64,000 nt of DNA. Origin: a virus. The stretch lies in IMG/VR virus record IMGVR_UViG_3300042553_000685; one strand, given 5' to 3'. Shown piece after piece: positions 24,169-63,767 of this stretch (positions are counted from its first letter, which is position 1; every line of letters begins with the position of its first letter). Both the position numbers and the translations under genes were made by a program. Below the pieces are notes generated by a model. The model had not been told where the DNA came from. It searched no databases and saw only the letters and a program-made list of their open reading frames with translations.

Positions 24169-24173
24169 CGCTA

Positions 24174-25723: not shown

Positions 25724-25731
25724 CGAATTTG

Positions 25732-29952: not shown

Positions 29953-29954
29953 AG

Positions 29955-30308: not shown

Positions 30309-30438
30309 AAAATCATAGGTTTGAAACCCCGTCTTAGAAGGACGGCTTTACAGTTCGCCAGGAGTTGTAGACAAGAAACTTACAATCTTCTGGCTTTGCG
30401 TTTTGGCAAGCCCCGTCGCTTCAGCGCGGGGTTAGTGA
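30309..30438 (-). other. 130-nt structured intergenic region (stem-loops, then a U-run)
   Basis: The minus-strand RNA shows CCCCGCGC-UGAA-GCGaCGGGG and CCGUC-CUUCUAA-GACGG hairpins, UUGUA/UACAA pairing, then GGUUUCAAACC and UGAUUUUUUG just before the next start codon. Confidence 0.3.
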
Positions 30439-35018: not shown

Positions 35019-35520
35019 GATATACTGCTCCTACTATGCTTTGCACTGACTCCTCCGAGTAGCCGAACCAGCGCGCTAGTTGAGCTGCCACTATTGGTCT
35101 ATTAGCCGAGTTAGCTAGCATCATAAAGTTGTTAATTAGTGGTGTATCAGGCATTCGTTTTCTTATTAGCACTTCGAGACCCTCGGCGTTTACGTTGGGC
35201 CTCTCTCTACTATCAGCTCGCATCTGTATGGTCTGTGGCAGTCTTACACCTATAGTAGCTGCATTCAGCGCTAGTACCTGGCCAGGCATCATACGACGGG
35301 GGCTACTAACTAACTCTATACCACTCAGTAGCCATACAGCATCTAACCAATAGGGCCTTGGTATTATTACTATTAATGCGTAGCCCGCACGCGCATCACG
35401 GGTATCCGCATCGTACGTATATTGTGTTAGGAGCCTGAATTGATTTACGTGAGTGCTAATACCGCCCGCGCGGGCTATAGCTCTCTCTAGTTCATCCCCA
35501 TCTCTACTAGTAGTTCTCAT
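35008..35520 (-). CDS. hypothetical protein (170 aa)
   Basis: ORF in the array. Confidence 0.55.
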   Translation of the reverse strand: MRTTSRDGDELERAIARAGGISTHVNQFRLLTQYTYDADTRDARAGYALIVIIPRPYWLDAVWLLSGIELVSSPRRMMPGQVLALNAATIGVRLPQTIQMRADSRERPNVNAEGLEVLIRKRMPDTPLINNFMMLANSANRPIVAAQLARWFGYSEESVQSIVGAVYRAN

Positions 35521-35524
35521 TAGT

Positions 35525-40154: not shown

Positions 40155-40160
40155 AATTAA

Positions 40161-40191
40161 TAAAAAGGGGACTCAGGAAATCCTGAGTCCC
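40161..40191 (-). terminator. intrinsic terminator after the tail tube gene
   Basis: The minus strand reads GGGACUCAGGA-uu-UCCUGAGUCCC (11-bp GC-rich stem) followed by CUUUUUAUUAAUU. Confidence 0.75.
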
Positions 40192-40212
40192 ATAAGCGGA
40201 GAGAATGTGGGA

Positions 40213-40923
40213 TTATTGTGTAATACTATTCCCAAACGATGAAGAAGAGCTTCCCACAGATAAAGGACGAGTATTGTTTTTGAACTGCTGAACAGATTCA
40301 GGAATATACCGAATACCTTCAGCTACACCCTCCCAACGTTGTGCAGGTACGCGACGACCAGGCATGAAGCCGACGCTGTAATTATCTACCTTGCATCTAG
40401 TTATTTCATATCTGAACTTCGCCCTACGATTACGACTAGCAGCACTATTACTAGGGAACTCTATGCCGCTCTGATTATCGCCATTAGAAGCGATATTCCA
40501 GAAGTCGAGGGATCCTAATCTACGACTATCTGTTCCACTACGAGTTAGTGGATTAGTTACTAACTCAGACGCATTAGCATCGAAGGTAATCTGGAACCGG
40601 GGGCTCCGACCTAGTATTTGATCACGACCAATTTCATTAGTGCCGAACGTGCGGCCCATAAATTCACCATCAACTAAACCTTGTTCTAGTACCCACGCGA
40701 TGTTATATTCCCCGTCTAGATAGACAGGTACGCGTTGGCCTAATTCTAAATAGGTCTCAGTCGAATTTCTAATACTGAGCGTCAGGGACTGGAACTTACC
40801 GAACCAGGCAACCTGTCCGCTACTAGTGTCATTAACCCAGACCTCGAAGTCAAACCCACTAAAGGGATCGAGACCAAAGTTATTGACAGCAGGAGTGAGG
40901 AAAAGAGCATCTTTAGATGACAT
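40213..40923 (-). CDS. tail tube protein
   Basis: 236 aa, 4 nt downstream of the sheath gene and followed by a strong terminator. Uses the non-TA (high-expression) codon style. Confidence 0.6.
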   Translation of the reverse strand: MSSKDALFLTPAVNNFGLDPFSGFDFEVWVNDTSSGQVAWFGKFQSLTLSIRNSTETYLELGQRVPVYLDGEYNIAWVLEQGLVDGEFMGRTFGTNEIGRDQILGRSPRFQITFDANASELVTNPLTRSGTDSRRLGSLDFWNIASNGDNQSGIEFPSNSAASRNRRAKFRYEITRCKVDNYSVGFMPGRRVPAQRWEGVAEGIRYIPESVQQFKNNTRPLSVGSSSSSFGNSITQ

Positions 40924-40927
40924 TATA

Positions 40928-43252
40928 TTACTCGCCTAAGGGACTGGTTTCTGTGTCGCGGCTAATCGTCACATAGATATAATCCGCGCTATAAAGGGGC
41001 TGGAATTGTAAACTAACGTATAGTTCGCGGCTAAAGTAAGACGCTGTGCTATTATTGCTGCCATCGATGATGGCAGGCCGGAAGCTAACAATGTTGCCAT
41101 TCCGCTTGAGCTCGCCCATAAAGGCATTAAGAGCAGCGGCTATCTGATTACGGACTAAACGACTATTAGGCATAGCCACATAATTCCGTAGGATAGCGTG
41201 CGCCCCCTGCCTAACAACGTCGTGAACCCGGCGTAGATATATACGCTCCCACGCAGGATCAGTAGATAGTGTAACACCACTAGCAAAGCGGTATGTACGG
41301 TCAACTGTATCCAGACTCAGTACCTCTAACCGCGCAGCTGAATAGATGTCCTGATTGCTGCGGCTAGTATAGTTATCCGTATCAGACTCTATGATGTTAA
41401 AGAGGGGCCCGACAAGAGACCGCGCTGCAGGACTGACAAAGAAGTCAATAGCAGCTAATTTACCTGCGTAAACAGCAGCACCAGGCACGCCATAGCGACT
41501 ACTATTAGGTTGGCCGGCGTACGTAAACCAGCCTGCTACCATAACCGCACGGGTGGAGTTGAATCCACGCGTAACACTGGCAGCCAGAGTAGGGGTAGTG
41601 CGCGGAGGAGCGGCTAATACTGCAATACGAAGGCCATCACTATCACTAGCACGTTCGGCTTCAGTAATAAGAGCCTGCTGAACACCTACGTTGGTAGTGC
41701 CCACTAGGAGAATATGCACAGGTTGGTTCTCTAGAGTACGGATGATGCTAACATAGTCATCATTAGTTACAGGAGGCCCGTCGTATCCATTCTCTAGTGT
41801 TACATCCACTAACACATTAGGACCATAAAAGTCCACGTGGGCAGGGTTCTCAACATCAGTCTCACTCTCGTCAGGCGGGGCTAGTCTCAGCGGTGACTGA
41901 CGTACTAGAGCGGCGTCGTAATTAATCGAGTCGATGGACTTAGGTAAGAAGAAGCCTCGGATAAACTTCGAATCGAGGAGTGCATTTAATTCACCTGATT
42001 CGTTTGTATCCCCCAGTTTAACAGTGTAAACTTCATCGGCGAGAGGTGGGTTGAAGGCACTACCATTTAGATCTTGTACAGTAAGGCGAAACTCGCTATT
42101 ATTCACAGGATAGATACTAACCGTAACTTGATTACCCCAGTTACCCTCACTGACTGCCTGGAGGCGCAGGAGGGGGGTACCATTGAAGGTATAGAAATCA
42201 CGGAATGCACTACGAGGACCATCCAATCCGCCCTGGAATGAGGTGAAATGAATAGCGGGATCCGGAATAGTAGTGACTAATGCAGGACTAGTGGTAAAGC
42301 CTCTATTAGCAGTGTTGTCGTTTGCCGTTACGTAGAACGAGAAGCGATTGCTGATAGAACCAGTGAGAGCAGGCTCTAATTGAATGACTACTCCGTTGTC
42401 CTCAACATTACGAGTAATCTCACCAAAGGGCTCCACACCTGCACAGGCACTGATCAGGCTAGTGACAATCTGGTTAGGTAGGTCGCCGCTAAAGATGGGC
42501 ACAGAGACTACATACTTGTTAACTCTAATACTCCAGCTATTACCCTCTACTAGATTGAGGGCCGCACCGACTACAGTACCGAAACGAACGCTGATGTTAT
42601 TACTAGTTAGTGGGATGAGAACGTTACTAGAACTACCTGCACCAGCAGCAATATTAACATCAATATCCGTAGTGACAGCCGCCCAGTTAAGTGGATTCTG
42701 ACCCAGTGGTACAAATTGCCATTTAATAGTAGCTACACCAGCAGCGACATCATCAACGCGAAGGAAATATCGGCCACTGGTAGAACCAGTATACGGGCCC
42801 GTCGCGGCTACTGTCTCTTTACTATTGACTACAGGCGCTACGGCAGTATTAGTGAGCATAGGCCATACTATATCAGCAGGTGCATCCTCGCGAGCAATAA
42901 CCTCTCCCACGAAATTGGTGTGGATATTGAGAGTGTTATTAACTCCCGCTACACCAGAGAATGTGAGGGATGCAGAAGCAGGGCGGCCCCGGCCAGTAAC
43001 TCGTACTAAGGCAATGTTAGCATCATCTTGATTAGCGAATTGATCATATACAGCCTGGTACTGTAATGAACCTGGACTAGTGTCGGAGCCATAGCGATAC
43101 GCAAAGTCCGAGAAGTTACCAATGTAGGTCAGGATGTTAGCCGGCCCTCGATTAAATCGGTCTATGATGGCGATCCGATTCAATACGTTCGGCCGCGGCA
43201 AGGCAAAACCTACATTAGTATCTTGAAATTCTATAAAGGGGGCGCGAGCCAT
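40928..43252 (-). CDS. contractile tail sheath protein
   Basis: 774 aa. The N-terminus APFIEFQ...IAIIDRFNRGPANILTYIGNFSDFAYRYG...ALVRVTG fits the conserved sheath N-terminal pattern. The C-terminal VPGAAVYAGKLAAID... region also fits. The sheath-tube-terminator layout supports the call. Confidence 0.75.
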   Translation of the reverse strand: MARAPFIEFQDTNVGFALPRPNVLNRIAIIDRFNRGPANILTYIGNFSDFAYRYGSDTSPGSLQYQAVYDQFANQDDANIALVRVTGRGRPASASLTFSGVAGVNNTLNIHTNFVGEVIAREDAPADIVWPMLTNTAVAPVVNSKETVAATGPYTGSTSGRYFLRVDDVAAGVATIKWQFVPLGQNPLNWAAVTTDIDVNIAAGAGSSSNVLIPLTSNNISVRFGTVVGAALNLVEGNSWSIRVNKYVVSVPIFSGDLPNQIVTSLISACAGVEPFGEITRNVEDNGVVIQLEPALTGSISNRFSFYVTANDNTANRGFTTSPALVTTIPDPAIHFTSFQGGLDGPRSAFRDFYTFNGTPLLRLQAVSEGNWGNQVTVSIYPVNNSEFRLTVQDLNGSAFNPPLADEVYTVKLGDTNESGELNALLDSKFIRGFFLPKSIDSINYDAALVRQSPLRLAPPDESETDVENPAHVDFYGPNVLVDVTLENGYDGPPVTNDDYVSIIRTLENQPVHILLVGTTNVGVQQALITEAERASDSDGLRIAVLAAPPRTTPTLAASVTRGFNSTRAVMVAGWFTYAGQPNSSRYGVPGAAVYAGKLAAIDFFVSPAARSLVGPLFNIIESDTDNYTSRSNQDIYSAARLEVLSLDTVDRTYRFASGVTLSTDPAWERIYLRRVHDVVRQGAHAILRNYVAMPNSRLVRNQIAAALNAFMGELKRNGNIVSFRPAIIDGSNNSTASYFSRELYVSLQFQPLYSADYIYVTISRDTETSPLGE

Positions 43253-47749: not shown

Positions 47750-49063
47750 TTATAAACCAGGGAAGAATAGGTCTCCTTGGATACCTAGACGCTCATTGAT
47801 TTGCTGTACGGTACAGGGAGTTACATGGCAGACGCGATAGGGGAACTTGAAGTAGGGAAGACCCGCATTACCCATCTGAACCGCGATACCAGGTGCTGCC
47901 GGAGGAGGAACATCAGTAACAGTACGAGTCCATAAGCCGGGGCTATCAATGCTGTTTTCACTAGAGCAATACTGAGTTCTACCCGGTGCTTCTACGTTAC
48001 CATTGCTATCGCGGAAGCTGACAGCTACAATTTTGTTCTTAGGCCATACGCGCTTCTCAACACCATCAACTGGGTCCTTGTAGATAGTATCTACTACGTG
48101 AACGTTGATTCCCGCAATAGAGAGGATCTCGCCGCGGGTACCTAATACTAGGCCCATGCCAGTTCCTAATCCACCAGGAGGGAGGGGACCAAAGGACCCA
48201 CCACTGCCGCTGGAGTCAATTGTACTGTCTCCAAACACTGCGCCGAGCCTAGGGATAATACCGCCTTGTGCGAGACGAGCTTCTTCAGACATGAGAATAA
48301 CGTCACGCATCTCGGGACCCATATACATATCGGTGATATCCGATTTATTGGTATCCTTAAACCAACGGTTTAGTCGACGTGCAAAGTTGGAGAGAGCAAA
48401 CTGAGGATCAGTGATAGGAATACCTGAACTGGGAGTACCGCCTGCGTTTAAATCAACGAGGTTACGGAATAAACGGGCCTCATTACGGCCACGGTAACCT
48501 TGGGTAGTGTTGAAGTTAAAGAAGTTACGCGCGGGGATGTACGCAGGGGCCTTAACACGAACTCCAGAACGAGGATCAGTGTAATTGATGCCGCCGAGCA
48601 TCATAGCAGCCTGGAACACGTTCCAGGTTAATTGATGCTTCTGCATTTGACGGGTGAGTTTCTTCTCAATCTGTTCAGCAGCAGTAGCGCGTTCATTAGT
48701 AGTACCCTCTCTCACAGTGTTATTGAGTTGGGCATAACTCATGTACATCGATTGACGGATAGGAAGGGGTTGGTAGGATTGGCGATACACTGTATAGCCA
48801 TCGTCATCAACGAATAGGTCAGGTGCACCCCATTCAACCACAGGGAAAATAGTATCGACGCCTTCAATGACGTGTTCAGCAATGACAATACGCTCAGCAA
48901 TAGTCTCATCGGGGAATACAGTGCTGAGAGGGGTCGCAGGTAACTTAGCGAGAATAGAGCGGGCTAACTCAGTGTATACAGGCTCCCGAGGGAACGTAGT
49001 GTTGTCTACTAAGTAGGGGCTGCTGATAAGCGCTTGAAAGTTGGGGCTCGGAATATCTGCCAT
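47750..49063 (-). CDS. major capsid protein (lambda gpE-like pattern)
   Basis: 437 aa, immediately after the protease/scaffold gene. The overall pattern (QLTWNVFQAAMMLGG..., ...VWPKNKIVAVS..., C-terminal ...AGLPYFKFPY) recalls Phage_cap_E-type capsids. The call rests on synteny plus recollection. Confidence 0.6.
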   Translation of the reverse strand: MADIPSPNFQALISSPYLVDNTTFPREPVYTELARSILAKLPATPLSTVFPDETIAERIVIAEHVIEGVDTIFPVVEWGAPDLFVDDDGYTVYRQSYQPLPIRQSMYMSYAQLNNTVREGTTNERATAAEQIEKKLTRQMQKHQLTWNVFQAAMMLGGINYTDPRSGVRVKAPAYIPARNFFNFNTTQGYRGRNEARLFRNLVDLNAGGTPSSGIPITDPQFALSNFARRLNRWFKDTNKSDITDMYMGPEMRDVILMSEEARLAQGGIIPRLGAVFGDSTIDSSGSGGSFGPLPPGGLGTGMGLVLGTRGEILSIAGINVHVVDTIYKDPVDGVEKRVWPKNKIVAVSFRDSNGNVEAPGRTQYCSSENSIDSPGLWTRTVTDVPPPAAPGIAVQMGNAGLPYFKFPYRVCHVTPCTVQQINERLGIQGDLFFPGL

Positions 49064-50476: not shown

Positions 50477-50899
50477 TTGACATCACTAAAGGTAGGAAAT
50501 ATGCAATTAGAAAGATTATTGGCTTTAGAGGCTCTAGAGCGACTTCTTGTTCGCCGTATTCGTAATGCGACTATTGAAGATACCTCTCTGGTATTCAACC
50601 TCAATGAGGGGTTGAGTACCAAACCTTATAAAATAGATATAGCTTCCTTACTACAAGGTACGCTCGAGTCTACATATTATAATTACCTGGCCGGCCGCAT
50701 GCTAACTGAGGGCTACACTTATACTGCAGTTGAGGGAGGTGAGATAGTAGAGTCACCTCGTGGTGATATCTATCAAATACATGGCACAGACTGTAGTTGC
50801 CCTCAGCGAGGTTACTGTAAACATCTCATACTGCGAGACTGGCACCTAACATACCGAGCGCGGCAGAATGATCTACGTCATCGCGTAAAACCTAGGTAG
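50477..50899 (+). CDS. SWIM-type zinc-finger protein (likely ATG start at 50501)
   Basis: CxCx(6)CxH: DCSCPQRGYCKHL (about nt 50789-50827). The track ORF starts at TTG 50477; ATG 50501 follows AAGGTAGG. The 3' end overlaps the 3' end of the portal gene by 8 nt (convergent). Confidence 0.7.
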   Translation: MTSLKVGNMQLERLLALEALERLLVRRIRNATIEDTSLVFNLNEGLSTKPYKIDIASLLQGTLESTYYNYLAGRMLTEGYTYTAVEGGEIVESPRGDIYQIHGTDCSCPQRGYCKHLILRDWHLTYRARQNDLRHRVKPR

Positions 50900-52232
50900 A
50901 GCTAATGGCATCGGGTAATCCAGTAATGGAACGTATGTGATCCTTATCTCCATCTACTAGGAAGCCCATGTCATGCATCTGCTTAATGGCATCTATCAGT
51001 GCTGCTAGATCAGTGGCCCTCCCCGGTAAACGAGTTATATAGCCCGTGTTGTTAGCCAGTGGGTATAGTGCAGGATCGAAGTTCAACCTGATTAGATTGC
51101 CTATGACCTGCTCAGTGAAGGCGTGTATCACTGTATCGAATATACTGTTGATCTTACCATCGAAGAGTTCTAGTTGAATCTCACTGGCCCGGCCTGTACC
51201 AAAGGTAGTCTCTCTATTCTGCATCAGTAGATTAGGAATACCCATACCCATTAGCATATTGTTATCGCAGAGTGATATGGCTCTTTCGAATGAGTCGCTG
51301 AAGTTATTACCTGTAGTTAGGGCCCCCACCTGTACCGGCTGCTCCTTACTGAGCTGTGTTAATACTAAACCAGAGTCGGTGCTTAGACGACGGAGTGCGT
51401 CCTCTGCCTGCTCCGCTATAGTAGTGGTTATCTCTGTACCATCGGGGGCCTCCTCTACTACGCCCGTATTACCGGGTGGCACTATTACGTATATGAGAGG
51501 GGTACCATAGCGGTCTAGAGCTATGAGCATCATATCTCGAAAGGCCCGCTTAAAGATAGAGTAGTCTAGCACGCTAGTGAGGCAACTGGTACCCCAGGGA
51601 TTATTACCCTTAGTGTTGTAATTAATGAATAGCCGTTTGTGACTAGGGAGTCGTACATGACTACCTACCACGTCTACTCTCTTAGGGGGGTCTCCTATTC
51701 TATAGGGAGGCAGAGGCACCCAGTAGCCCGACTTGTATTGACTAGCTGTTACTGTATCACCATCTACTATACGGCCATTGTCGTTAGTGATGAGCATGAC
51801 CTGTAGTGGGTGATAATTAACTATGTCATCTAATACCGTAGCCGGCATACTATCTCGCGTGCCGTGGGCGTATATCTGCTCGCTTAGACTGAAGCCATAC
51901 GTCATAATAGACTTCACGCAATGAGATATCCATGTCTTGGCTCTATTGCGTAGTTGGTCATCTATGAAGTTCTTAATGCGTTTATCCCCGTGTTGATAGG
52001 GCCCGACCTTATTAAGTACGCTCAGTGCTATAGAGTCGAGGCCCTGCGCTATGATAGGCTCCGCCTGCGCTGCCTCATCCCAGGCACTCAGCTGCTGATA
52101 GGTAGGCTTGCCTGCTCGTTTATAGCCACCATCCTCAGATAGATAACTAGTGGCTAGGCCTAGGTGCTCCATAGCGTAGATAGTGCGCCGGCGTATTGCT
52201 GGCGTGGTGGTATTACGTACTTCCATATTCAC
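50892..52232 (-). CDS. portal protein (candidate)
   Basis: 446 aa, the first large gene of the head module, upstream of protease/scaffold and capsid. The call is from size and position, with no unique motif. Confidence 0.55.
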   Translation of the reverse strand: MNMEVRNTTTPAIRRRTIYAMEHLGLATSYLSEDGGYKRAGKPTYQQLSAWDEAAQAEPIIAQGLDSIALSVLNKVGPYQHGDKRIKNFIDDQLRNRAKTWISHCVKSIMTYGFSLSEQIYAHGTRDSMPATVLDDIVNYHPLQVMLITNDNGRIVDGDTVTASQYKSGYWVPLPPYRIGDPPKRVDVVGSHVRLPSHKRLFINYNTKGNNPWGTSCLTSVLDYSIFKRAFRDMMLIALDRYGTPLIYVIVPPGNTGVVEEAPDGTEITTTIAEQAEDALRRLSTDSGLVLTQLSKEQPVQVGALTTGNNFSDSFERAISLCDNNMLMGMGIPNLLMQNRETTFGTGRASEIQLELFDGKINSIFDTVIHAFTEQVIGNLIRLNFDPALYPLANNTGYITRLPGRATDLAALIDAIKQMHDMGFLVDGDKDHIRSITGLPDAISST

Positions 52233-53078: not shown

Positions 53079-56000
53079 ATGAGGCCACTGCCCGCTAAAG
53101 TAGGCAGTTTTTCAGCTATAGCTCTATTTAATAGGTTTTGTACTCTACTGATGGATATCAATAGCTCACTATTCTCTAGTAATCGATTTAATGACAGTGC
53201 TCGTTGGAATGCTCTCTACCGTATTCCTGAGGATACGCGCAGTAGATTATTACAGGGCTATAATCCTCTAGAAGTATTAATGGACCCTAACTTTATACCG
53301 CCTGGTACCGACGCCTCTATGGAGATGGTGCTAGCTGATGCTTTCTATGATAGGGTAGTTGATACTAGTAGTAGTCGAGCTGCTATCTCGAGTCTGTGGG
53401 ATAGTATGGAGGGCCCCGCTCGTCAGGAGTACTTCGAATACATGGCAGGTATGGGGGGTACAGCTACTCCTGCCCGTACCCAGACCGATGATATGCTTAA
53501 TTGGATGGCCCAGCGAGATCAGCTCACTATGCGGTCTAACCTAGAGGGCATAGACGATGAACGCCGCCTACTACTAGAGAATCGCTCTAGCATGTTGGAT
53601 CTAATATCTGATGATGGTTATAATGTACGGCCCGGCTTACTACCTATTGCCGCGCTAGTAGATACAGCAGAGAGAGAACTGCGTATAGACATTTATCAGT
53701 TCCAGAATGAGCGCGCTATAGATATGGTGGGTGAAGCTGTAGAGAGAATGGCTGGTAGTGGCCAGGGCGGCCGTGTGGTAGTTCGTATGGCTGCTCCATC
53801 TGAGACTGATGGAGACTCTCGTAAGAATTATGATATCCTGGGCCCCAACATTATGTTTTATAAGCGGCTGTCTTATCTACGGGACCGCTTCGGGAGTAAT
53901 GTAGATATAGATATCCAATGGGCTGATAGACGTAATCACCCTAAGTTCTTCGTTAGTGATAGGGCCGCTCTCATAGGTACGATGAACGTGACGCGGCCAC
54001 TAGGACAATCGCTAGAACAGGCGGGCTCTAATGTAGAGTTCACGCGGACTATACGCACTAACCTGACCTATAGCCAAATACAGGATGCCGATAGGGGTAT
54101 ACTGCCTGACATTATAACGCGAGCTGATAAGTTATACCTACAGGCCCGTGATGTTATGGATAGATTAGATGGTGGCGATAGAGTTCTATTCACGGGGCAG
54201 GATAGTATAGGTGGTGCTGGTGATGTTAATACTGCTCTACGCCGCCATATAGGTGAGCTCATTAATAGGCCTACTATCGATGGTAAAACGGGCCGCCTCT
54301 ATATGGTACTCAATCAGGTGTTCCTGCTCAAGCACGATAAGACCCTGATGGCAAGCCAGCTTAAAGGAGAGATGGGAGAGAATCCTGAGCATGAGAGAAC
54401 ACTATCGGGTTACCAGGCATACATGCAAGCCAGAGAGCAGGAATACTCTAAGCTCCAGGCTAATGTATTAGATCTGGTTATAGAGGGCCGCGCTCGTATA
54501 GGAGTAGATGTACATACCTATCGAGAGGATGTGCAGGACCCTATGAGCCGCTTACTACTGAGCAACCAGAAACTAGCTGCTGAGTTATCTCAATCTAATT
54601 ATGACGTGGCCCGCTGGATTAAGGAAAGCCGGGGTACTGATGTTAGTGATATGGCTAACGTGCTGAGCACGTATGGTTTCTATAGTGGAGATCTCGAAGG
54701 CCGGCAGCGTATGGCCCGACAATTATTAGCTATAGCTAGCGGTAATATAGAGCCGACCGCAGTACCGCGCAGCCACGTTAAGGCATACCTGGCAACCTAC
54801 GAGAATGATGTCATAAATCAAGGGGCCGGGCCTGGCATGCAGAATATAAACAATCGTCAGGCCTTCGATATCCTGGGTGGTAGTCAGGGATCTAGTAACT
54901 ATGGCCTTAATTCTCTGGCAGATAATGATGATCCCCTGAGCCGCCGACTCGTTAACCAGGAGATCAATATAATTTACGATAGGGTGGGTGGGACAAGCCT
55001 TCTCAGTCTCTCTGATGAGGAGCGTGATGAGGAGAATAGGGAATACGCGCGGGCCTTCTATAAATTACAGAGCTCCCTGGGAATACAACGAATAGGTGAG
55101 ACTCCTTATATTGGTCGGGACCGTAGGTCTATGTATGGTAATAGGGTAGATAGAGGAGCCATACTGGACCTAATCAGCGAAATAGAGAGAGTTAATGCGG
55201 CTGTCGGCTCTGAGATTATAGGCGTACAGCGAGACTACGATGGTCTTAACCTAGAGGGCGCTACTCTAACACTCAATAAGGGCCTACCTACTCAGCGTGT
55301 ATATAGATGGGGTGCCTATAAGAACGCTAGTGGACGGGGGCCCGCCGCCTTCATAGATATAAGTGGGGGTCGTCAGATAGAGTCAGCTGAGCTATTCAAT
55401 ACTGGCACAATGCGTATGGAGCTGGCTATGGAACGTGATGGTCTTGGTGTGGGTCTGGATCCTCGTAGACGCCTGCGCCTTAATCCACTGGATGTAGTAG
55501 TGGGTCTTATGAGCTCTATTGCGTTAGAGAGTGAGACTACTCGTTTAGTGCGGGCCCCACTTATGGAGTACCAGAGGTACTATAGCCCTGATAATATACG
55601 CGCCGCCCAGGCCGTACAGCGCGACCCCGGCGCTCAGTATCAGAGTGCCATAAACTTCTTCGAGAAGCTATTGGGTGTGAGTGGTCTTGACCTAACCACA
55701 GACGAGGGTACTAGTAGAGTACAGCAGGGCCTCAGTAACCTGACCTCCTTGTTCTACTCTAGTGACCCTGATCTAGATCGTATACGAGACCTAGCGAGTA
55801 TATCTCGTATTGATAGCCGCCGTAGAGTGGCCTTCGAGGAACTATCTAACATATTTCTTACCTATGCGCGGTCTGTAGATGAGAGAGGCCTACCCATAAT
55901 AGACCTAGAGGCACACCGTAGAGGGGCCCTTAATCTTGCCGCTAATAAGCTATATGAGATTATGGATCAGGGCCCTATGTTCGCTGATGTGTTATTCAAG

Positions 56001-59000
56001 TTTATCGAATCCCAGAATGATAGCCGTTATAAGACTGATGTGCGCGAGAGGTTAAAGGAGATACATGATAGTGCATTCGCCGCGTTCCTTACTCCTACAC
56101 AGGCTCGTAATTATGGTTCTACACAAGCAAGTAATCGTTTACTGGCCTATGGCTTTGGTCAGGGTAGGCAGCCCGCTGGTATATCTATAGTTAATGCTGC
56201 ACTACGTCGTATTAAGGCTAATGAGACTGCCTTTAGTAATCTGAGTGCCTTTGCTTATACTGCTAGCCCACTGCCTATAGGTCCGGTATCTGACCTTGGT
56301 GTAGGCGATGACTTCCTCTTTGTACGAGTTGCTGAAGGTAATATAGACTCTACGGCTACTGATGAGAGCCAGTACTTTACTGGCTATAGTAATGTGCTAC
56401 CTCTATCTCGCCGTGCCACTGCCAGTGAGGTCTTCGACCTATCCATCATACGCAGTACTGGTGTGGGGGATATCATACGGCGAGATGAGCTGAGCGAATA
56501 CATGAAGGCAGTGAGTCATTTGGGTATAGACCGCTCCCTGCTAGAGGCAGAGTTTGATGCCCGCGGCGATAACCTACTCCGGTTCTTCTTTGATCCTAAT
56601 AAGCCGGATCAGGTGCCTCAGCGTCTTAAGAACGTGATTGGTATGCGCCCGCTCATGGATATAAGCGAGGGTTATACCCAGGTATTGGAGTTAGTTAGTC
56701 CCACTAATACTGGTAAGGTCATACCTGAGTTGACCCCCGTTAGGTATCGAGCCCGTTACGGAGGTAGCGATGTAGATGTACTGCAGGGCAGTATGTATCA
56801 GGACGCATACCTAGCTGACCTGCGCGCCGGGTTAGATGCACGTGGACTAGATAGTAGTATCGTAGATGATAGCTATCGCTATGGTGCTATATTCAGTGGT
56901 AGAATATCTCGCTTTATGAGTAGTGAGGCGGCTGTAGAATTAGAGGCTATACGGTATGAATTAGCCGACCGCCTGGGTATCGATAGTGAGGATATACCCA
57001 CTGAGGATGATAGCGTACTGGCCGAGCTATTCCGCGCTACTATAGTGCAATCTCAACTCTTCGCTAGTAGAGAGCGTGGATTGATAGGCTCTGGACGGGC
57101 CCGCCCTACTGTTATGATTATGGCACTGGAGGGAGCCTATAGTGACTACGCGTATGCTAACCCTCTACATAGGGTAAGACGCGGCTTCCTAGATCAGGCT
57201 ACTAAGAGTAGTAAGGCTAGTCTATTAGGACGAGACTGGACATTCGATAATGTACTAGTGAGTAGCGATGACCGTATTGTATTCGATGAGAGAGAGCAGC
57301 GCTACTATCTACTAGATAGAGAGGGGCGTCGTAAGCAGGCTATCACTAGTCGTAGTGAGATGCGCGTGTTCCTAGACCAGATAGAGAGTACATCTCGTAA
57401 TCCTAATATGGGGGCCGCTATGGCTACTAGTGCCGCAGCCGGTATACGCGGCGAGTACGCTATTGAGCAGCTACTACAGGTTAGTAGGCTGACTGGTAGC
57501 GATGCTACTAATGAAGTGCAGGTGCAGATACAATTCCTACGCACTCTACTTGAGGGTGGCTCTCGACGGGTAGAGGCAGAGCGCGGTCTGGCTAAGATAG
57601 TCCCTGTGTTCCTGAGCGAGGATATTATGCGTAGTGAGGTGTTCCCCACTATACAGCAAGGGGGCTATCATAGTGCCCTCGAGATAGAGGACATCCAGTA
57701 TATAATCAGCCCTACTAACCTGAAGAGCTACGCATTCAACCACGGGGCTACTCTACTTACTTATAATGGCGGGGAGCTATTCCGTCGGGGGGTACTAGAA
57801 CGGAATGATCAGCAGATAGCGGCCGCTCTCCTTTCCATAACTGATTCGCGTCTCTTTAGTAATAATAGCAATATCAATATAGACAGTGTCTATATAGAGA
57901 TAGCACAGTTGGCAGCGCAGGGGCGGCTCGGTAATTACTATCGTGACCTCTATATGTCTACTATGCTGGAACTTATGCGGAGTGATAAGCTAGGAGATGG
58001 CTCCCCTCATCTCGAAATAGGTAGGAAGCTAGTACGCGGGGGTGATGGTGCTATTAATAGACTACAGAGTCCTGTTCTAGGGGCCATTGATATATCAGAG
58101 ATAATGACAGCCCTGCGTAGTGGAACTAGTAGCGGGGCATTATCCGATAAGGTAGGTCTGATAGTAGATGCAGCAGATGCAGCGCGCAGGGGTTATGTAG
58201 ATACTGGGGCTATGGGCCGCGGCTTTGAGCGCGCTGCTATAGCCGGTAATCTAGAGATTATGATGCAGCTCATGTCGCTTAATAATACCCTAGAGCTCAA
58301 GACTACGCCAGTGACTGGTAGCGATAGTATATCTCGTCATGCGTATGCGGCTATGAGCGCTATAGCAGGTGTTACGCAGGCAGATGAGATAAGCGTAGGC
58401 CAGGAGAACGTGGCCGTTATGCTCGATAGATTGAGTAATTACTCTCGCTATGTAGTGCTATATAATGCCGTGATGGGTAGTAGCTCTAAGGTGCCATTGA
58501 GTAGTAAGGACACTGCGCAACTAGAAATGCAGCATATAGTATCTAGTCCCTTCATGGCTAACGTGGATAAATTCAAGCGTGATGGTAGTGTTGATAGTAT
58601 GCGTAGGGCTATCCTTGGCGTCATGAAGATGGCCATAGGGGCAGACCCCAATAAGATAGCGGTGGATGACATCCCTATGTATGACCTGGCTAGTCTGGAC
58701 TTCCACGCTAACTCTACGTTGGGAGAAATACTACTAGGGGCCTATAACGATGCGCGGGCCCCATTAAGCGATATAACTAATCTACGCGAACGATACAGGC
58801 AGTTCCACACTGCCTTGTCTCTACTCGAGAGTGCCAGTGATACTGACATGGTGTCATATACTAGAGGGTCGGGCCTCGATATTACTAATGTTACTCATAC
58901 TATACTTGATGAGATAGCGACATGGATGGGGCAACCTGCTGGGACTGATAGAGATACTCTGCGTAATGTAGTGCGCCAGTCACTTCGTGTCCTGAAGAAT

Positions 59001-62000
59001 GATATATATGCCCATGCGTCTCGCTGGCGTCTAGCAGGGGATAAGGTACTGGGTGTAGAGGCTACTGAAGCTACCGTGCAGTCAATGGGCCAGAGGGGTC
59101 TTCGTCGTATAGCTTATGAGTTCCCCTCCTTCCGTATAGAGGGGAATAACGTTGTATTCAATACAACTATTAAGGATAGGGGATTTATCCTGAGTCCTGA
59201 GGACGTGAGGATAGCAGGTATCCAGTTCGGTAGCCACGAGAATGAGATAGCTGCTGCTACGGTAGATAAGTGGATTATGCTGGCCCCCGGTAGTGCAGTA
59301 CGCGATATCTTCGAGAAGGTGGCCATTGAGTCTGGCTCGAGGACTACTGTTGAACTGGAGGGCCTCAGTGACTTCCAGATACAGGAGTTGACTCGGTTCC
59401 AGGAACTCAACAACACTTATGAGGCCCGCGTTTATAATGACCTGGCGAGCGCATATCTGCAGTCTATCACTGGTAATAAGATAGGCGTGACAGGTACTAC
59501 TGGTGTGGGGGCCGCTAGCTGGTATGTACCTGTGCGCGGCGCCGTACTAGCAGAGGCCACTATGGAGCGCTTCGGTACGCGAGGTAGTCAGACACGAGAG
59601 GAGATACTTACTAGATTAGGGGACCATCTTAAGAATAACCTGTCTGTTATTGGCCAGTCAGGTGATAAGAGAATTGGTCGTAGGTTAATACAACAGCAGA
59701 TATACGCTATAACTGAGGGCCTCAGTATAGCGGGCATGTATGGGCTGGAGGCAATAGTAGATAAAAGTAAGAACTTCCAGAGCAAAGCGGCCGGTATAAG
59801 AAAACTGGCTCCTGATTCACAGGCAGCTGAATACGCTCAACTAGAGATAGAAATTAAAGTTGAGATGGATAGATTCAGTAGCATGAAATTCAGCGGTAGC
59901 GGGGATTCTCTGATATCTACTCTAGGTGAAGCCGAGATGGGCACAATACTAGAATCTCTGCCTGGAGCTGAAACTCATAAGTATAGAGATCTGGGTCACT
60001 TACCTGTTATTATCTCCGGGCTCATGATAGGTAGTCATGGCCCGTCCCGCTCTATCATACCTGATAATATGCGTATCTACATTGACACTAATGCATTAGG
60101 TAATAGGTTTGATAACCTGGATCTACTACAGGGCCGCATACGTAAGAATCCCATAGACCTATCCTTCTTCAGTGATACGCGTGGTAAGGATGGTGCTGAG
60201 ATGCTGAATATATTCTCTACTAGACTAGATAGTCTAGAGAGAACTATTAATGCCGTGACCTCTGCTGTAGATACGTATTTAGAAGGTAAGAGCCCCCGGG
60301 GCACTGATTTACATAATAGAGGCGTGGCTCTCATAGCTCAGTATAGGAAGCTGGTAGATAACGCAAACGCCGCCTATGCAGTGGAACTAGATACAGTAAT
60401 GGCTAATCGTGCAGCGCGCGATTCATTATTCATAATGAATAGTACTCTGCAGGCTGATATGAGTATGTTCTTCACTGAGCTGGAGTTAACGAGAGCCTGG
60501 ATTCAACGTAGCCCGCCCCCTGGGAACACCCATCTCGATAAGCTGGTGTTCGGCTTAGATACACTCAATAGTATTAATAACATATACCGGGACCTAACTG
60601 GCAGTGGCTTTAACTTCTTTGATGATACTCGTAATAAGTCGTTGACTCTACTTAATCCTATTAGCTTTATAACTAGTAACCTAGGGGACTTCGATGGGGA
60701 TACCTTCAGCGCTATATTCTTCAATTACTCTCAAATGAAGTTGCAGCGCGATGATATGCTGGAACGAGCTAAGGAACGGCGGGAGATGGCATCTCAGGCC
60801 GCTGATCCCGCTAAGCGTACCATTCTAGAGAAGCAAGCTAATGACCTAGATATGCGCGCCAGTGCTTTACTGGATACTATACAGCAGGTAACCACTAATG
60901 CTAATTGGAATGAGTATACCGACTCAGTGTATAGCTGGGTAGCGGGCTATATGAAATTAGATAAGGGTATGCTGGAACAGCGAGGTATAGAACATGCCCT
61001 GGTATTAGTAGAACAGTCCCGCGGTCTCTTTGGTATGATGGAGGACGTATACGCGCGTATACAGCCGGCCCATGAGCCCCTATTAGAATTAATACAGCAG
61101 AGCAGAACTGATAATGCAGTTGATATAGTTAATAGATTATCTACCTCTACAGACCAGAACATACTAACCGATCTCGTTAATAACCCTGATACGGGGCCAT
61201 TCGTGCGGGCTAGTCTACATGATATCCTGAGCGCTACAGGTAATGATCAAGAAGAGAAGGCCTATGACTTCCTGCATAAACTAACTGCTGTTAATGCCCG
61301 CGATAATCTCAGCAAGTACATGAAGCGCGCTGATGGTAGTGTCATGAGCGGCGGCCAATTCGATATGATGCAGAAGGTACTGGGCCAGGCAGGTAGTGTA
61401 ATCCTCGGTAAGACGTATAACACTACCGTGGGTATGCTATACGAGCGCTCCCCTATCATGGCTGTGTCTCACGCACTAGAGAATAGCCCGGCTCTACAGG
61501 ATGACATGCGCCGTATACTAATCGATCAGGGTATGGCAGGAGGCATGAGCGCGAGTGATGCTAACCTAGAGGCCGATAGTAAGATAGTGGATATACAGAG
61601 ACTGGCTCGCCAGAGTAGAACAGAGGTAGGCGAGGTAGGCACATTCCTGCAAGAGATACAACAAATGCTACGGGACGCTATTAAGCCTAAGATGGGGGGT
61701 GCTGAGTTCCTAGAGAACTTATCGCAGTACCATAAGCGCTTTGTAGATGCTGTCGATGATGTGGAGCGCCAGCGTGTAGTAGATGATATGAGTAGACTAC
61801 TACCATCTATAACTCCTCTATTTAAGTTAGATGCGTATATAGGAGCTCATAAAGAATTACTGGCATCAGCTACTAATGATGCCCAGGACTCTAAGATTAA
61901 TGATCTGCTGACTAAGCTATCCATTGGAGAAACTGAGCAGTTAGATTTATCTCGTCGATTGAGCGTACTGCGAAGAGATGAGATAGGTACCCATAGCCGC

Positions 62001-63767
62001 GCCCTCATAGCCAGTTATCAGCTACGTCAGGACCTAGTAGGTATGACGGCTGTATTCGCCTTCGAGCGGGCTATGCCAACCGATAAGGCAGGTAACCCCA
62101 TTAGCTCTGGTAGAGGCCTAGCAGAGAGTGTAGAGACCTACATAAATAGTGAGCCCGCGCGGGCCGCTCAGATAGATGCTCTCATAGCCGGCGGCATCAC
62201 TAATGGCCTCACCGAGATGGAGATAGAAGTAGAAGAGTTTCAGAACTTCACTCGTGACGTAATAGGAGATAAGCGCTTCCAGGATATGGGAGCGGATACT
62301 AAGCGTATATTAGCTATGAACTTCCTACGTAGTAGGGAGAGTGCATCACTCTGGGCTAATATTGATGGTAGTAAACTACTGCGCTTCGCTATTAATGATA
62401 GTACCCGCTCCACACTATACGGAGGACAACTAGAGGATGTACTTGGTCAGGATCTGATTACTGCCGCTGGTGACCTTACTGGCTCAGGAGCTAGTCCGCT
62501 GGTTAGATCACTGTTACAGGCTGTATCGGCCGGGAAGATAAACGAGCCTGAGCAGGTAACACGGGCTCTCGAGTCTCTTATGGATACCTTCACTCACGCT
62601 GATGGTAAGCGCTATGAAATAGCAGACATCTTTAGCGTATTACTCAATAGCGGTACCCCTAGCCCAGCTGATAAGGAGATAGCAGAGTTTATTCAGAAGA
62701 CAGTTCTCACAGATGAGACAGCCACTAGTCGATTAGTTACTTATGTTCGCGCTACAGCGCTAGGTCAACAGGTAGATACAGCCGATAGACTAGTAGAAGA
62801 GCTACGGGACTATGAGAGTCGTGACGTCGATACGCGCTATATAAAACTGCTACAGGATATGGGTGTCGCTCCAGATAGGGCTAAGGAGTTATCAGCTCGT
62901 CGGCGCGACTATCTACTGGCCGGCTCACCCCCTGATGTGGACCCACTGGATCCTCGCCCGCGACCAGATCGCCCCCTCTTACGCGTAGTAGATGATCTAC
63001 CTATTCTTAACAATACTGCCGGTAATCTAATGGATGTACTTCTATTCCCCTTATTAGCGTTGGCAGGAGATATGATTAGTAGTGGCGGAGCCCGCCCCGA
63101 GGCAATGCAGCAGACTATGGGTAATATGCTAGGCGCTATGGCCTACGTAAGCGCCCCAGCAGGTAACCAGATGGGACGTTTCGCTGCAGGTACTCTGATG
63201 AGTATGGGATTCAAGGGCCGCTTAGCAGGTCAACTACACGAGGACTATACAATTGGTGTCGGTATGCTATTAGCACAGGAGATAGCCTTTGGCGCAACAG
63301 CTCAACTCGCAGGCCGCTATATCATCAACCCATTCGTAGAGAAGACACTCGGTAAGGCTCCCACAATAGACTCTGACCCATTCGCGGGCCTGCGTAATGT
63401 AGCTAGCAACGTCATCACGGGGGCATTGAGCCTCGTATCAGCAGGCTTCGTAAATAAATTACTCCATCGTGGGCTAGAGGTCAGTATGCAGCGTAGTGTA
63501 GCCCCCGTGGCTCTAGACGCTGTTAGTGCCGGTATACGCGCTACTCAAGAAGCTATTAATCAGGCTCGCATGGAACGAGAGGATAATGCTGAAACCGAGG
63601 TCGTAGATGACGCGGGCTCCCCTGTTGAGTTCTTCGTACAAACTATATTCAATGGTGATGAATACGACACCTATGACGCCCTCTATATGAGTGACCTAAC
63701 ATTAGATCGTCCTAATAGTATGGCCTATCGAGATGAGAGCGAGAGTTACTCTATGGATCTGGTTTAA
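53079..63767 (+). CDS. giant multidomain protein (3562 aa): PLD-like N-terminus, two-barrel-RNAP-like DFDGD core, C-terminal hydrophobic helices; candidate virion-packaged/ejected RNA polymerase
   Basis: A single uninterrupted ORF with core phage codon style. Motifs are detailed in the features and findings below. The ORF is certain; the function is inferred. Confidence 0.85.
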   Translation: MRPLPAKVGSFSAIALFNRFCTLLMDINSSLFSSNRFNDSARWNALYRIPEDTRSRLLQGYNPLEVLMDPNFIPPGTDASMEMVLADAFYDRVVDTSSSRAAISSLWDSMEGPARQEYFEYMAGMGGTATPARTQTDDMLNWMAQRDQLTMRSNLEGIDDERRLLLENRSSMLDLISDDGYNVRPGLLPIAALVDTAERELRIDIYQFQNERAIDMVGEAVERMAGSGQGGRVVVRMAAPSETDGDSRKNYDILGPNIMFYKRLSYLRDRFGSNVDIDIQWADRRNHPKFFVSDRAALIGTMNVTRPLGQSLEQAGSNVEFTRTIRTNLTYSQIQDADRGILPDIITRADKLYLQARDVMDRLDGGDRVLFTGQDSIGGAGDVNTALRRHIGELINRPTIDGKTGRLYMVLNQVFLLKHDKTLMASQLKGEMGENPEHERTLSGYQAYMQAREQEYSKLQANVLDLVIEGRARIGVDVHTYREDVQDPMSRLLLSNQKLAAELSQSNYDVARWIKESRGTDVSDMANVLSTYGFYSGDLEGRQRMARQLLAIASGNIEPTAVPRSHVKAYLATYENDVINQGAGPGMQNINNRQAFDILGGSQGSSNYGLNSLADNDDPLSRRLVNQEINIIYDRVGGTSLLSLSDEERDEENREYARAFYKLQSSLGIQRIGETPYIGRDRRSMYGNRVDRGAILDLISEIERVNAAVGSEIIGVQRDYDGLNLEGATLTLNKGLPTQRVYRWGAYKNASGRGPAAFIDISGGRQIESAELFNTGTMRMELAMERDGLGVGLDPRRRLRLNPLDVVVGLMSSIALESETTRLVRAPLMEYQRYYSPDNIRAAQAVQRDPGAQYQSAINFFEKLLGVSGLDLTTDEGTSRVQQGLSNLTSLFYSSDPDLDRIRDLASISRIDSRRRVAFEELSNIFLTYARSVDERGLPIIDLEAHRRGALNLAANKLYEIMDQGPMFADVLFKFIESQNDSRYKTDVRERLKEIHDSAFAAFLTPTQARNYGSTQASNRLLAYGFGQGRQPAGISIVNAALRRIKANETAFSNLSAFAYTASPLPIGPVSDLGVGDDFLFVRVAEGNIDSTATDESQYFTGYSNVLPLSRRATASEVFDLSIIRSTGVGDIIRRDELSEYMKAVSHLGIDRSLLEAEFDARGDNLLRFFFDPNKPDQVPQRLKNVIGMRPLMDISEGYTQVLELVSPTNTGKVIPELTPVRYRARYGGSDVDVLQGSMYQDAYLADLRAGLDARGLDSSIVDDSYRYGAIFSGRISRFMSSEAAVELEAIRYELADRLGIDSEDIPTEDDSVLAELFRATIVQSQLFASRERGLIGSGRARPTVMIMALEGAYSDYAYANPLHRVRRGFLDQATKSSKASLLGRDWTFDNVLVSSDDRIVFDEREQRYYLLDREGRRKQAITSRSEMRVFLDQIESTSRNPNMGAAMATSAAAGIRGEYAIEQLLQVSRLTGSDATNEVQVQIQFLRTLLEGGSRRVEAERGLAKIVPVFLSEDIMRSEVFPTIQQGGYHSALEIEDIQYIISPTNLKSYAFNHGATLLTYNGGELFRRGVLERNDQQIAAALLSITDSRLFSNNSNINIDSVYIEIAQLAAQGRLGNYYRDLYMSTMLELMRSDKLGDGSPHLEIGRKLVRGGDGAINRLQSPVLGAIDISEIMTALRSGTSSGALSDKVGLIVDAADAARRGYVDTGAMGRGFERAAIAGNLEIMMQLMSLNNTLELKTTPVTGSDSISRHAYAAMSAIAGVTQADEISVGQENVAVMLDRLSNYSRYVVLYNAVMGSSSKVPLSSKDTAQLEMQHIVSSPFMANVDKFKRDGSVDSMRRAILGVMKMAIGADPNKIAVDDIPMYDLASLDFHANSTLGEILLGAYNDARAPLSDITNLRERYRQFHTALSLLESASDTDMVSYTRGSGLDITNVTHTILDEIATWMGQPAGTDRDTLRNVVRQSLRVLKNDIYAHASRWRLAGDKVLGVEATEATVQSMGQRGLRRIAYEFPSFRIEGNNVVFNTTIKDRGFILSPEDVRIAGIQFGSHENEIAAATVDKWIMLAPGSAVRDIFEKVAIESGSRTTVELEGLSDFQIQELTRFQELNNTYEARVYNDLASAYLQSITGNKIGVTGTTGVGAASWYVPVRGAVLAEATMERFGTRGSQTREEILTRLGDHLKNNLSVIGQSGDKRIGRRLIQQQIYAITEGLSIAGMYGLEAIVDKSKNFQSKAAGIRKLAPDSQAAEYAQLEIEIKVEMDRFSSMKFSGSGDSLISTLGEAEMGTILESLPGAETHKYRDLGHLPVIISGLMIGSHGPSRSIIPDNMRIYIDTNALGNRFDNLDLLQGRIRKNPIDLSFFSDTRGKDGAEMLNIFSTRLDSLERTINAVTSAVDTYLEGKSPRGTDLHNRGVALIAQYRKLVDNANAAYAVELDTVMANRAARDSLFIMNSTLQADMSMFFTELELTRAWIQRSPPPGNTHLDKLVFGLDTLNSINNIYRDLTGSGFNFFDDTRNKSLTLLNPISFITSNLGDFDGDTFSAIFFNYSQMKLQRDDMLERAKERREMASQAADPAKRTILEKQANDLDMRASALLDTIQQVTTNANWNEYTDSVYSWVAGYMKLDKGMLEQRGIEHALVLVEQSRGLFGMMEDVYARIQPAHEPLLELIQQSRTDNAVDIVNRLSTSTDQNILTDLVNNPDTGPFVRASLHDILSATGNDQEEKAYDFLHKLTAVNARDNLSKYMKRADGSVMSGGQFDMMQKVLGQAGSVILGKTYNTTVGMLYERSPIMAVSHALENSPALQDDMRRILIDQGMAGGMSASDANLEADSKIVDIQRLARQSRTEVGEVGTFLQEIQQMLRDAIKPKMGGAEFLENLSQYHKRFVDAVDDVERQRVVDDMSRLLPSITPLFKLDAYIGAHKELLASATNDAQDSKINDLLTKLSIGETEQLDLSRRLSVLRRDEIGTHSRALIASYQLRQDLVGMTAVFAFERAMPTDKAGNPISSGRGLAESVETYINSEPARAAQIDALIAGGITNGLTEMEIEVEEFQNFTRDVIGDKRFQDMGADTKRILAMNFLRSRESASLWANIDGSKLLRFAINDSTRSTLYGGQLEDVLGQDLITAAGDLTGSGASPLVRSLLQAVSAGKINEPEQVTRALESLMDTFTHADGKRYEIADIFSVLLNSGTPSPADKEIAEFIQKTVLTDETATSRLVTYVRATALGQQVDTADRLVEELRDYESRDVDTRYIKLLQDMGVAPDRAKELSARRRDYLLAGSPPDVDPLDPRPRPDRPLLRVVDDLPILNNTAGNLMDVLLFPLLALAGDMISSGGARPEAMQQTMGNMLGAMAYVSAPAGNQMGRFAAGTLMSMGFKGRLAGQLHEDYTIGVGMLLAQEIAFGATAQLAGRYIINPFVEKTLGKAPTIDSDPFAGLRNVASNVITGALSLVSAGFVNKLLHRGLEVSMQRSVAPVALDAVSAGIRATQEAINQARMEREDNAETEVVDDAGSPVEFFVQTIFNGDEYDTYDALYMSDLTLDRPNSMAYRDESESYSMDLV
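53937..53987 (+). other. HKD motif 1 of the PLD-like domain (HPKFFVSDRAALIGTMN)
   Basis: Fits HxK(x)4D(x)5G(T)xN. A second, degenerate half has HVK at 54774-54782 and GGSQGSSN at 54876-54899. Confidence 0.65.
60507..60720 (+). other. beta-prime-like double-psi beta-barrel signature (RSPPPGNTH ... NLGDFDGDTF)
   Basis: DFDGD is at 60687-60701. Compare E. coli beta-prime NRAPTLH...[13 protein letters not shown]. Confidence 0.55.

Follow-up and report, generated by a model that had tools for sequence, protein, structure and literature searches.

Two-barrel RNA polymerases are packaged in the virions of several phages. In the crass-like podovirus phi14:2, gp66 (PDB 6VR4) is a large virion protein of 2,180 amino acids (aa) that is ejected into the host; in the siphovirus P23-45, gp96 is a 5,002-aa tape measure protein whose polymerase has proven activity and structure. 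Here we compare these enzymes with gp080, a giant protein of the phage Ma-LMM01 whose gene lies in IMG/VR record IMGVR_UViG_3300042553_000685, a stretch of 64,000 nucleotides (nt) referred to below as the window. Our reading of gp080 is that of a virion two-barrel RNA polymerase of divergent type, a candidate rather than a finding, to which we give a probability of about 45%.

The P23-45 enzyme was found via a motif search of virion proteins, the remainder of its sequence having no detectable similarity to known polymerases, and the filter applied to candidates was [RK]xPx{20,100}DxDxD (Chaban et al., PMC10770324). Its polymerase is N-terminal (aa 327-1124) and is fused to further modules, including transmembrane-type segments. 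Jumbo myophages of the phiKZ type also package a two-barrel polymerase and transcribe their early genes independently of the host; that enzyme is multisubunit, with split beta and beta-prime chains, and is readily recognised. Single-chain enzymes with two barrels and loops of the G-G-D-Y-D-GD type include QDE-1 and other RNA-dependent RNA polymerases (RdRPs) of RNA interference (RNAi), as well as SPbeta YonO (compared here by description only). QDE-1 and YonO run from the second barrel through a connector to the catalytic barrel, with the bridge helix and then the trigger loop after it.

The window belongs to a Ma-LMM01-type myophage of Microcystis aeruginosa (genus Fukuivirus); bases 59000-62000 have 98.1% nt identity to NC_008562.1 (Ma-LMM01) and 96-97% to MaMV isolates. 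Among cultured lytic phages of this bloom-forming, toxin-producing cyanobacterium, Ma-LMM01 and its relatives are the main ones. An uninterrupted open reading frame (ORF) of 3,562 aa runs on the plus strand from an ATG at 53079 to 63767. It has the same extent as MaLMM01_gp080 (YP_851094.1), which is annotated "hypothetical protein" and takes up ~6-7% of the Ma-LMM01 genome. The initial annotation of the window had described this ORF, its polymerase-like motifs and a myovirus setting, and all three agree with that description, the motif coordinates on recomputation.

Conservation of the R...DFDGD pair

When 1.84 billion cluster representatives are scanned in full by HMMER with gp080 aa 1950-3149 as the query, 39 of them are returned, most 3,000-5,400 aa long; the shorter ones look like fragments. 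The homologues align along nearly all of gp080 (aa ~170-3540), and one relative comes from a cultured phage, Microcoleus phage My-WqHQDG. PHROGs places gp080 in its own family only. In the core alignment (39 sequences, 18-44% identity to gp080, region aa 1940-3020) just seven columns are invariant: R2477, G2482, D2537, D2539, G2540, D2541 and L2650. Two others, P2480 and G2536, are nearly so. The pattern GD[FYWL]DGD occurs in 38 of the 39 homologues covering the site, the 39th reading GADFDGD, and some relatives carry GGDFDGD. Upstream of this aspartate loop by 56-74 aa, 38 homologues have R-x-x-P-x-G, with the Arg invariant. In gp080, QRSPPPGNTH begins at aa 2476, so that R2477-x-x-P2480-x-G2482 falls at nt 60507-60524; GDFDGD is at aa 2536-2541 (nt 60684-60701, with DFDGD at nt 60687-60701).

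Conservation is what gives these motifs their meaning. A lone D[FYW]DGD is unremarkable in a genome scan, because 175 of 20,000 shuffled versions of gp080 contain one (0.9%), and 82 of 20,000 (0.4%) have it together with an upstream [RK]x(1-2)P. With conservation counted, the R...DFDGD observation is far above chance, and the pair is the best-conserved feature in the alignment of this giant phage protein family. Other searches added little to the family. A word-indexed protein search, which returned no protein longer than ~900 aa, gave a near-identical fragment or nothing with either aa 2000-2900 or the family alignment, and an IMG/VR search with the single gp080 protein gave near-identical contigs only. 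Using an alignment of the downstream blocks discussed below as possible bridge helix and trigger loop, IMG/VR yielded 19 loci (5 near-identical and 14 more distant, with 28-44% block identity), which were kept out of the 39-sequence alignment.

The motifs can be set beside those of gp66, gp96 and Escherichia coli RpoB/RpoC, with each sequence taken from its own record. In gp66, YRIPNQG is followed after 39 aa by TGSDFDIDKMYVMLP, where TGSDFDIDK has DFDID instead of DFDGD. In gp96, FRNPVMG (R-x-P-x-x-G) is followed after 38 aa by TGVDFDGDTLVVLP with an exact DFDGD, and in RpoC, NRAPTLH is followed after 35 aa by DFDGD. The gp080 version is QRSPPPG, a gap of 60 aa and then NLGDFDGDTFSAIFF. All four share the same order, namely an Arg, a Pro, the aspartate loop and a hydrophobic strand-like flank, and the Gly at R+5 of gp080 is shared with gp66 and gp96. 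The R-x-P-x-H-P-G-D type motif of RNAi RdRPs does not seem to be matched in gp080. The R...DFDGD pair within the signature noted in the initial annotation is borne out, both as a conserved feature and in a layout like that of gp66, gp96 and beta-prime. Two considerations from this comparison support the polymerase reading: six of the seven invariant core columns are R, G, D, D, G and D, and the order, spacing and flanks of the motifs match those of gp66, gp96 and RpoC.

Homology searches, predicted folds and the nature of the site

A number of results weigh against a polymerase. Pfam searches with the whole of gp080 give no match at E<=1, and with the members of three sub-alignments RdRP is matched in 1 of 37 (E=1.3), no other family recurring. 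Searches of the PDB with phmmer and hmmsearch (four queries) find no polymerase; the sequence search with aa 2000-2900 returns nothing, and profiles of aa 2462-2660, of an 87-residue catalytic block and of the downstream block return no polymerase at E<=10. The hmmsearch with aa 2462-2660 is flooded by coiled-coil matches from the helical hairpin after DFDGD, and the hits of the trimmed catalytic and downstream blocks are vitamin D receptor, antibody or SMC noise. When the family profile is compared by hhalign with gp66, gp96 (aa 1-1200) and RpoC, the probabilities are 0.1-3%; the gp96 comparison is not significant and leaves the DFDGD motifs unpaired. Against a profile of 78 gp66-family sequences, the probability is 0.1%, with the Arg and the aspartate loop in register. 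The best local match within RpoC pairs NPISFITSNLGDFDGDTFSAIF with the 21-column stretch around NADFDGD, and in block-wise comparisons (P 0.4-0.7) the gp66-family catalytic block maps to the same place; both placements speak for a polymerase, although neither result is significant.

The motif region itself contributes further points on that side. The conserved Pro of the gp080 family is at R+3, whereas the canonical position is R+2; strict [RK]xP is found in 20 of the 39 sequences, including gp080 (RSP). Just ~15-20 conserved residues precede R2477, and the first half of a barrel is not evident there. The block at aa 1988-2190, where the second (beta-like) barrel would be expected, shows no convincing barrel, no paired invariant basic residues and no K-G-type signature, and Foldseek finds no polymerase match for it; aa ~1999-2119 have a predicted local distance difference test (pLDDT) score of 74-90 in the first model described below, in roughly beta-beta-alpha-beta / beta-beta-alpha order. 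The octapeptide GDKRIGRR, proposed in the initial annotation as a weak beta-like motif, is rejected as such; the family alignment is gappy and variable at this point, and the octapeptide is not conserved. Also to be counted here is the published promoter analysis of Ma-LMM01 (computational only), which gives the early genes sigma-70-like promoters.

Two AlphaFold2 (AF2) models were made. Model 1 (aa 1940-3020, 23 sequences) has a mean pLDDT of 63.5 and a predicted template modelling score (pTM) of 0.33; model 2 (aa 2296-2560, 31 sequences) has a mean pLDDT of 60.7 and a pTM of 0.47 and is essentially helical. Neither contains a beta-barrel, and in both, the two motif segments have pLDDT <50. 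Foldseek finds no polymerase in the PDB (with the 1,081-aa and 265-aa models) or in BFVD. The only significant matches are BFVD models of Ma-LMM01 gp080 itself, and the remainder are helical-bundle or tape measure noise. Both models place a strand (LTLL) and a short helix (PISFITS) before the DFDGD loop, at low confidence and with little weight; if the models are right here, this strand-helix-loop order would be that of the second half of a double-psi barrel. The connector between the two conserved regions (aa 2200-2465) is helical in both models and has one semi-conserved motif, L-E-G-x-h-R-[KR]-G, at aa ~2343-2352.

Since confidence is low in both models at the very place of the motifs, the fold test is uninformative rather than negative, and the central claim is without structural support. 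The negatives as a whole are weak, because the models are poor and known two-barrel families share just this motif. Many such families have no significant similarity outside the motif region (PMC10770324). Since the same lack is reported between established families, significant similarity to a known member is not strictly required for membership of the two-barrel superfamily. The profile searches and structure comparisons that the initial annotation had looked to for confirmation thus yielded no polymerase signal and no barrel. Since it had named such an absence as grounds for giving up the polymerase, the missing signal counts against that reading; the part of the argument based on fold is invalid. 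The interpretation of gp080 as a polymerase is made at the level of motifs, of the same kind as led to gp66 and gp96, and is without independent computational support.

The same results would suit a giant virion or ejection protein in which R...GDFDGD forms some other enzyme or metal site and the likeness to RNA polymerases is convergent. The site might belong to another nucleotidyl- or phosphoryl-transfer fold, or bind Ca2+/Mg2+ in a structural role within a scaffold made mostly of helices. Such a site agrees with the negative homology and fold tests, with the mainly helical AF2 region and its very few strands, and with the departure of the Pro from the canonical [RK]xP register; D-x-D-G-D occurs too in EF-hand-type and HAD-type loops. 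EF-hand and HAD readings were judged unlikely from the flanking residues, however: the family is without the EF-hand Gly at loop position 6 and Glu at position 12, has an invariant third Asp where HAD phosphatases carry Thr or Val, and lacks a hydrophobic strand ahead of the first Asp. EQ-RGLFG plus TYN-x-x-G was considered as a lytic transglycosylase signature and rejected on wrong spacing and the lack of a Pfam SLT match in any member. Pfam searches of gp080 and the members offer no alternative known domain for the core, and the co-invariant Arg 56-74 aa upstream, together with the flanks, suits polymerases better. We consider a non-polymerase site unlikely, though a serious competitor; if it is right, the family remains a hallmark protein that is conserved and uncharacterised.

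If gp080 is a polymerase, elements downstream of the catalytic loop should correspond to a bridge helix and a trigger loop, and two blocks resemble these by eye. One contains the invariant pattern LG-x-AG-x-x-x-LGK-x-YN (aa 2768-2781) and lies in a predicted 45-residue helix (model 1, pLDDT 52-64), with G, L, G, K, Y and N invariant. Its LGKTYN resembles GKSGVGITAN of gp66 and LGMCTN of QDE-1, and also the beta-prime string KTAN. The other is found at the tip of a helical hairpin in the prediction and contains Q-x-x-RD-x-IK-x-K (aa 2862-2871), with invariant Q, R, D and K; D-x-x-K is common to gp080 (RDxIKPK), the gp66 family (VD-x-AKDP) and QDE-1 (VDQSK). In the gp66 family, G...G-I-T-A-N and V-D-x-A-K-D-P are likewise invariant and downstream of the catalytic motif. 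Structure-based alignments assign LGMCTN (QDE-1) and VGITAN (gp66) to the bridge helix and VDQSK and VDNAK, respectively, to the trigger loop (PMC10770324). With hhalign, the best match of the gp66-family bridge-helix block is at GQAG (aa 2769-2772; 4 columns, not significant), and the trigger-loop block does not pair with RDxIKPK. The likeness may therefore serve as a lead only.

Probable packaging, timing and transcription

Transcriptome data from Ma-LMM01 infection contain no gp080 reads at 0 and 1 h; expression is seen at 3 and 6 h and puts the gene in class B5, to which the portal gene also belongs. Such timing agrees with a protein destined for the next virion, and it excludes an early enzyme that is not packaged. 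The giant multidomain gp080 is a protein of middle-to-late infection and, because it is transcribed at 3-6 h like the portal gene and adjoins the portal/head module, is probably packaged in Ma-LMM01-type virions.

Two parts of gp080 outside the core bear on what such a protein might do. The N-terminus matches Pfam PLDc_2 with E=3.4e-4 and 20.9 bits, under the 27-bit cut-off, and carries one HKD motif: aa 287-303 (nt 53937-53987) read HPKFFVSDRAALIGTMN. The pattern H-x-K-x4-D-x6-G-[ST]-x-N matches once, and the motif is kept in the family consensus; BFVD lists gp080 under the UniProt name 'PLD phosphodiesterase domain-containing protein'. In the C-terminal region, there is one clearly hydrophobic segment (aa 3315-3339), which may be of the type found in tape measure and ejection proteins. 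The PLD-like domain of the initial annotation is partly supported, by the HKD motif, with the Pfam score falling short; of its membrane-type helices, the one C-terminal hydrophobic segment is present. The N-terminal two thirds of gp080 contain many more family-invariant blocks, e.g. GEMG, TSGNI, QIPQRLKN, YSDY...NP, GGGRR and NPSNLKSY..HG.

A virion protein that is largely helical, with a Gly-rich hydrophobic C-terminal region, could instead be a tape measure or tail-lumen protein, in whole or in its helical and C-terminal parts and perhaps with a fused enzyme; this would be partly compatible with a polymerase. PHROGs, Pfam and tblastn reveal no tape measure protein among the tail module genes (25732-43252), the non-significant BFVD Foldseek matches after gp080 itself are mostly tape measure proteins (E 0.04-1), and P23-45 gp96 is a precedent. 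However, those matches do not rise above noise, and the model behind them is of low confidence. Unlike gp96, which is encoded in the tail module of a siphovirus, gp080 has a PLD-like N-terminus and a gene beside a myovirus portal, ~10 kb from the sheath and tube genes and on the opposite strand. At ~1.5 A per residue, 3,562 aa would span ~530 nm, well above the length of the Ma-LMM01 tail, roughly 200 nm; family lengths range over ~3,000-5,400 aa, and the lysozyme/M23 peptidase module typical of tape measure proteins is a separate protein here. A tape measure role is thus improbable.

The expression of gp080 from 3 h only is also what would be seen for an unpackaged RNA polymerase of middle and late genes, comparable to SPbeta YonO or P23-45 gp64. 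Late promoters differ slightly from early ones, and no phage sigma factor is known. Against this, the literature describes two-barrel phage enzymes outside the virion as small, and virion proteins are the more typical bearers of features such as the size of gp080, its single cysteine in 3,562 residues, its hydrophobic C-terminal region and its position at the head module, making an unpackaged enzyme the least probable of the readings considered here, with only a slim chance.

On the reading that we prefer, a packaged polymerase, the C-terminal third of gp080 (~aa 1990-2900) would be a very divergent single-chain two-barrel RNA polymerase, with R2477 and D2537/D2539/D2541 of GDFDGD forming an Mg2+-dependent catalytic site. 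The LGKTYN and RDxIKPK helical blocks would be its bridge helix and trigger loop, and the variable helical aa 2200-2465 a clamp-like connector. Ejected with the DNA, gp080 would carry out transcription of the earliest phage genes with no need of the host enzyme; envelope crossing would be aided by the C-terminal hydrophobic region, and the N-terminal PLD-type HKD domain would be a nuclease or phosphodiesterase. What we observed is the ORF, its family and conservation, its gene context and its transcript timing; fold, activity, packaging and ejection are inferences. Like gp96, gp080 would then be a giant multidomain virion protein, although the polymerase is N-terminal in gp96 and would be C-terminal here. 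It would share a myovirus setting with the phiKZ-type virion polymerases and differ from them in being one chain without detectable similarity. The wider picture, in which Ma-LMM01-type phages hold an unrecognised divergent single-chain two-barrel polymerase in a 3,000-5,400-aa virion protein with a PLD-type nuclease and a membrane-active C-terminus, is tentative, and the odds lean somewhat against it.

Published work describes transcription in these phages without such an enzyme. The early genes of Ma-LMM01 are gp054-gp063, and all promoters there are BPROM predictions of sigma-70-like sites. According to the authors of the transcriptome study, uniform promoters do not explain the three temporal classes; reliance on host sigma-70 for all of them also sits uneasily, in their view, with an unchanged host transcriptome. 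Two points here favour a polymerase: three classes with near-identical sigma-70-like promoters are beyond what the published model can account for, and no other transcription polymerase is known from these phages. The MaMV-DH01 genome is described as without an RNA polymerase, with virion proteomics still needed (PMC9927357). The TV-Pol element of Ma-LMM01 was considered as a competing enzyme and set aside; it is a mobile-element DNA polymerase/primase and non-transcriptional (PMC2579912). Directly upstream of the early operon gp063-gp054 is a 42-bp tandem repeat of 6.7 copies (NC_008562.1 43271-43551; L036 10272-10552). Each unit carries TAGCCA...TTATGG, and the last runs into the published early promoter (TAGCCA / GATATAAC). 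The repeat could be a stack of promoter-like or polymerase- or regulator-binding sites.

The initial annotation had considered the combination of features in gp080 to be undescribed. A giant virion protein with a fused DFDGD polymerase is already known in P23-45 gp96 (PMC10770324); the claim has to be narrowed accordingly. We found no published link of Ma-LMM01 gp080 to transcription. If gp080 is a packaged polymerase, it would be the first single-chain two-barrel enzyme of its kind from a contractile-tailed phage and the first from a cyanophage, and a giant virion protein hiding a polymerase would have arisen in all three tail morphotypes. It would be a very divergent form rather than a new category, hidden DFDGD polymerases being known from a podovirus and a siphovirus, and it would add a further family of single-chain two-barrel polymerases relevant to the origin of transcription enzymes. 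These phages are described as lacking an RNA polymerase and using host sigma-70 for all three classes. A packaged enzyme would change that picture, making them at least partly independent of RNA polymerase from the host, and could explain three temporal gene classes without altered host transcription.

Features of gp080 and its gene neighbourhood

Coordinates of the features of gp080 and of the surrounding head/tail genes are collected in Table 1.

Table 1. Parts of gp080 and structural genes in the window
Feature	Window position (nt)	Strand	Comment
PLD-like N-terminal domain, aa 192-306	53652-53996	+	weak Pfam PLDc_2 match, HKD motif
Conserved block, aa 1988-2190	59040-59648	+	position expected for second (beta-like) barrel
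GDKRIGRR, aa 2195-2202	59661-59684	+	gappy, unconserved stretch
Variable connector, mostly helical, aa 2200-2465	59676-60473	+	lowest family coverage; length varies strongly
Candidate catalytic block, aa 2466-2550	60474-60728	+	R2477-x-x-P2480-x-G2482 and G2536-D-F-D-G-D2541
Conserved EQ-x-R-G-L-F-G block, aa 2645-2653	61011-61037	+	EQ-x-x-GL (2645-2650) invariant, including L2650
LG-x-AG-x-x-LGKTYN...SP block, aa 2760-2795	61356-61463	+	bridge-helix-like by eye only
F-x-Q-x-x-x-Q-L-L-R-D-S-I-K-P-K block, aa 2856-2871	61644-61691	+	trigger-loop-like by eye only
Gly/Ala/Met-rich C-terminal region, aa ~3300-3540	62976-63698	+	family-conserved
Large terminase	2214-3992	-	head/tail module
Baseplate wedge	28535-29515	-	head/tail module
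Lysozyme + M23 peptidase protein, 397 aa	35525-36718	-	head/tail module
Baseplate protein	36718-38283	-	head/tail module
Tail sheath	40928-43252	-	head/tail module
Major head protein	47750-49063	-	head/tail module
Portal	50892-52232	-	phrog_113 portal; divergent neighbour of gp080

The gp080 gene starts 57 bases past the last small minus-strand ORF and runs in the opposite direction; it is divergent from two small ORFs and then the portal gene, with the major head and tail sheath genes further off. Contigs of three distant relatives were examined, all of them phage-like and 155-185 kb long. The giant gene and the portal gene are divergent in two of these (P0002 and P0008), and in the third (P0023) the portal gene is ~10 kb downstream of the giant gene. 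Gene order in P0002 and P0008 follows that of the window, from the giant gene through a divergent Mu-type portal to the capsid, and one of the two also has a sheath.

Some minor observations concern the tail module and its surroundings. Tape measure profiles, a 5,002-aa P23-45-type profile among them, have a peptidase module that is matched by the 397-aa lysozyme and M23 protein. By position or size, a 623-aa protein (38283-40154) and a 1,162-aa protein (30439-33927) are tape measure candidates. Two adjoining large minus-strand proteins, of 849 aa (11324-13873) and 1,359 aa (13860-17939), each have matches to phrog_877 and to phrog_5986 (unknown function); the two have the look of tandem paralogues and are possibly fibre or receptor-binding proteins. 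The minus-strand tail module is interrupted by small plus-strand ORFs (22367-24680), which resemble an inserted or differently regulated cassette, and the G+C content is 0.33-0.39 at 22000-26000 of the window vs ~0.47 elsewhere. In a distant relative (L006 7309-7629 and 22975-23232), the neighbours of the giant gene include a weak match to the Acb2/Tad1 hairpin (an anti-CBASS/Thoeris sponge) and a PAAR-motif protein.

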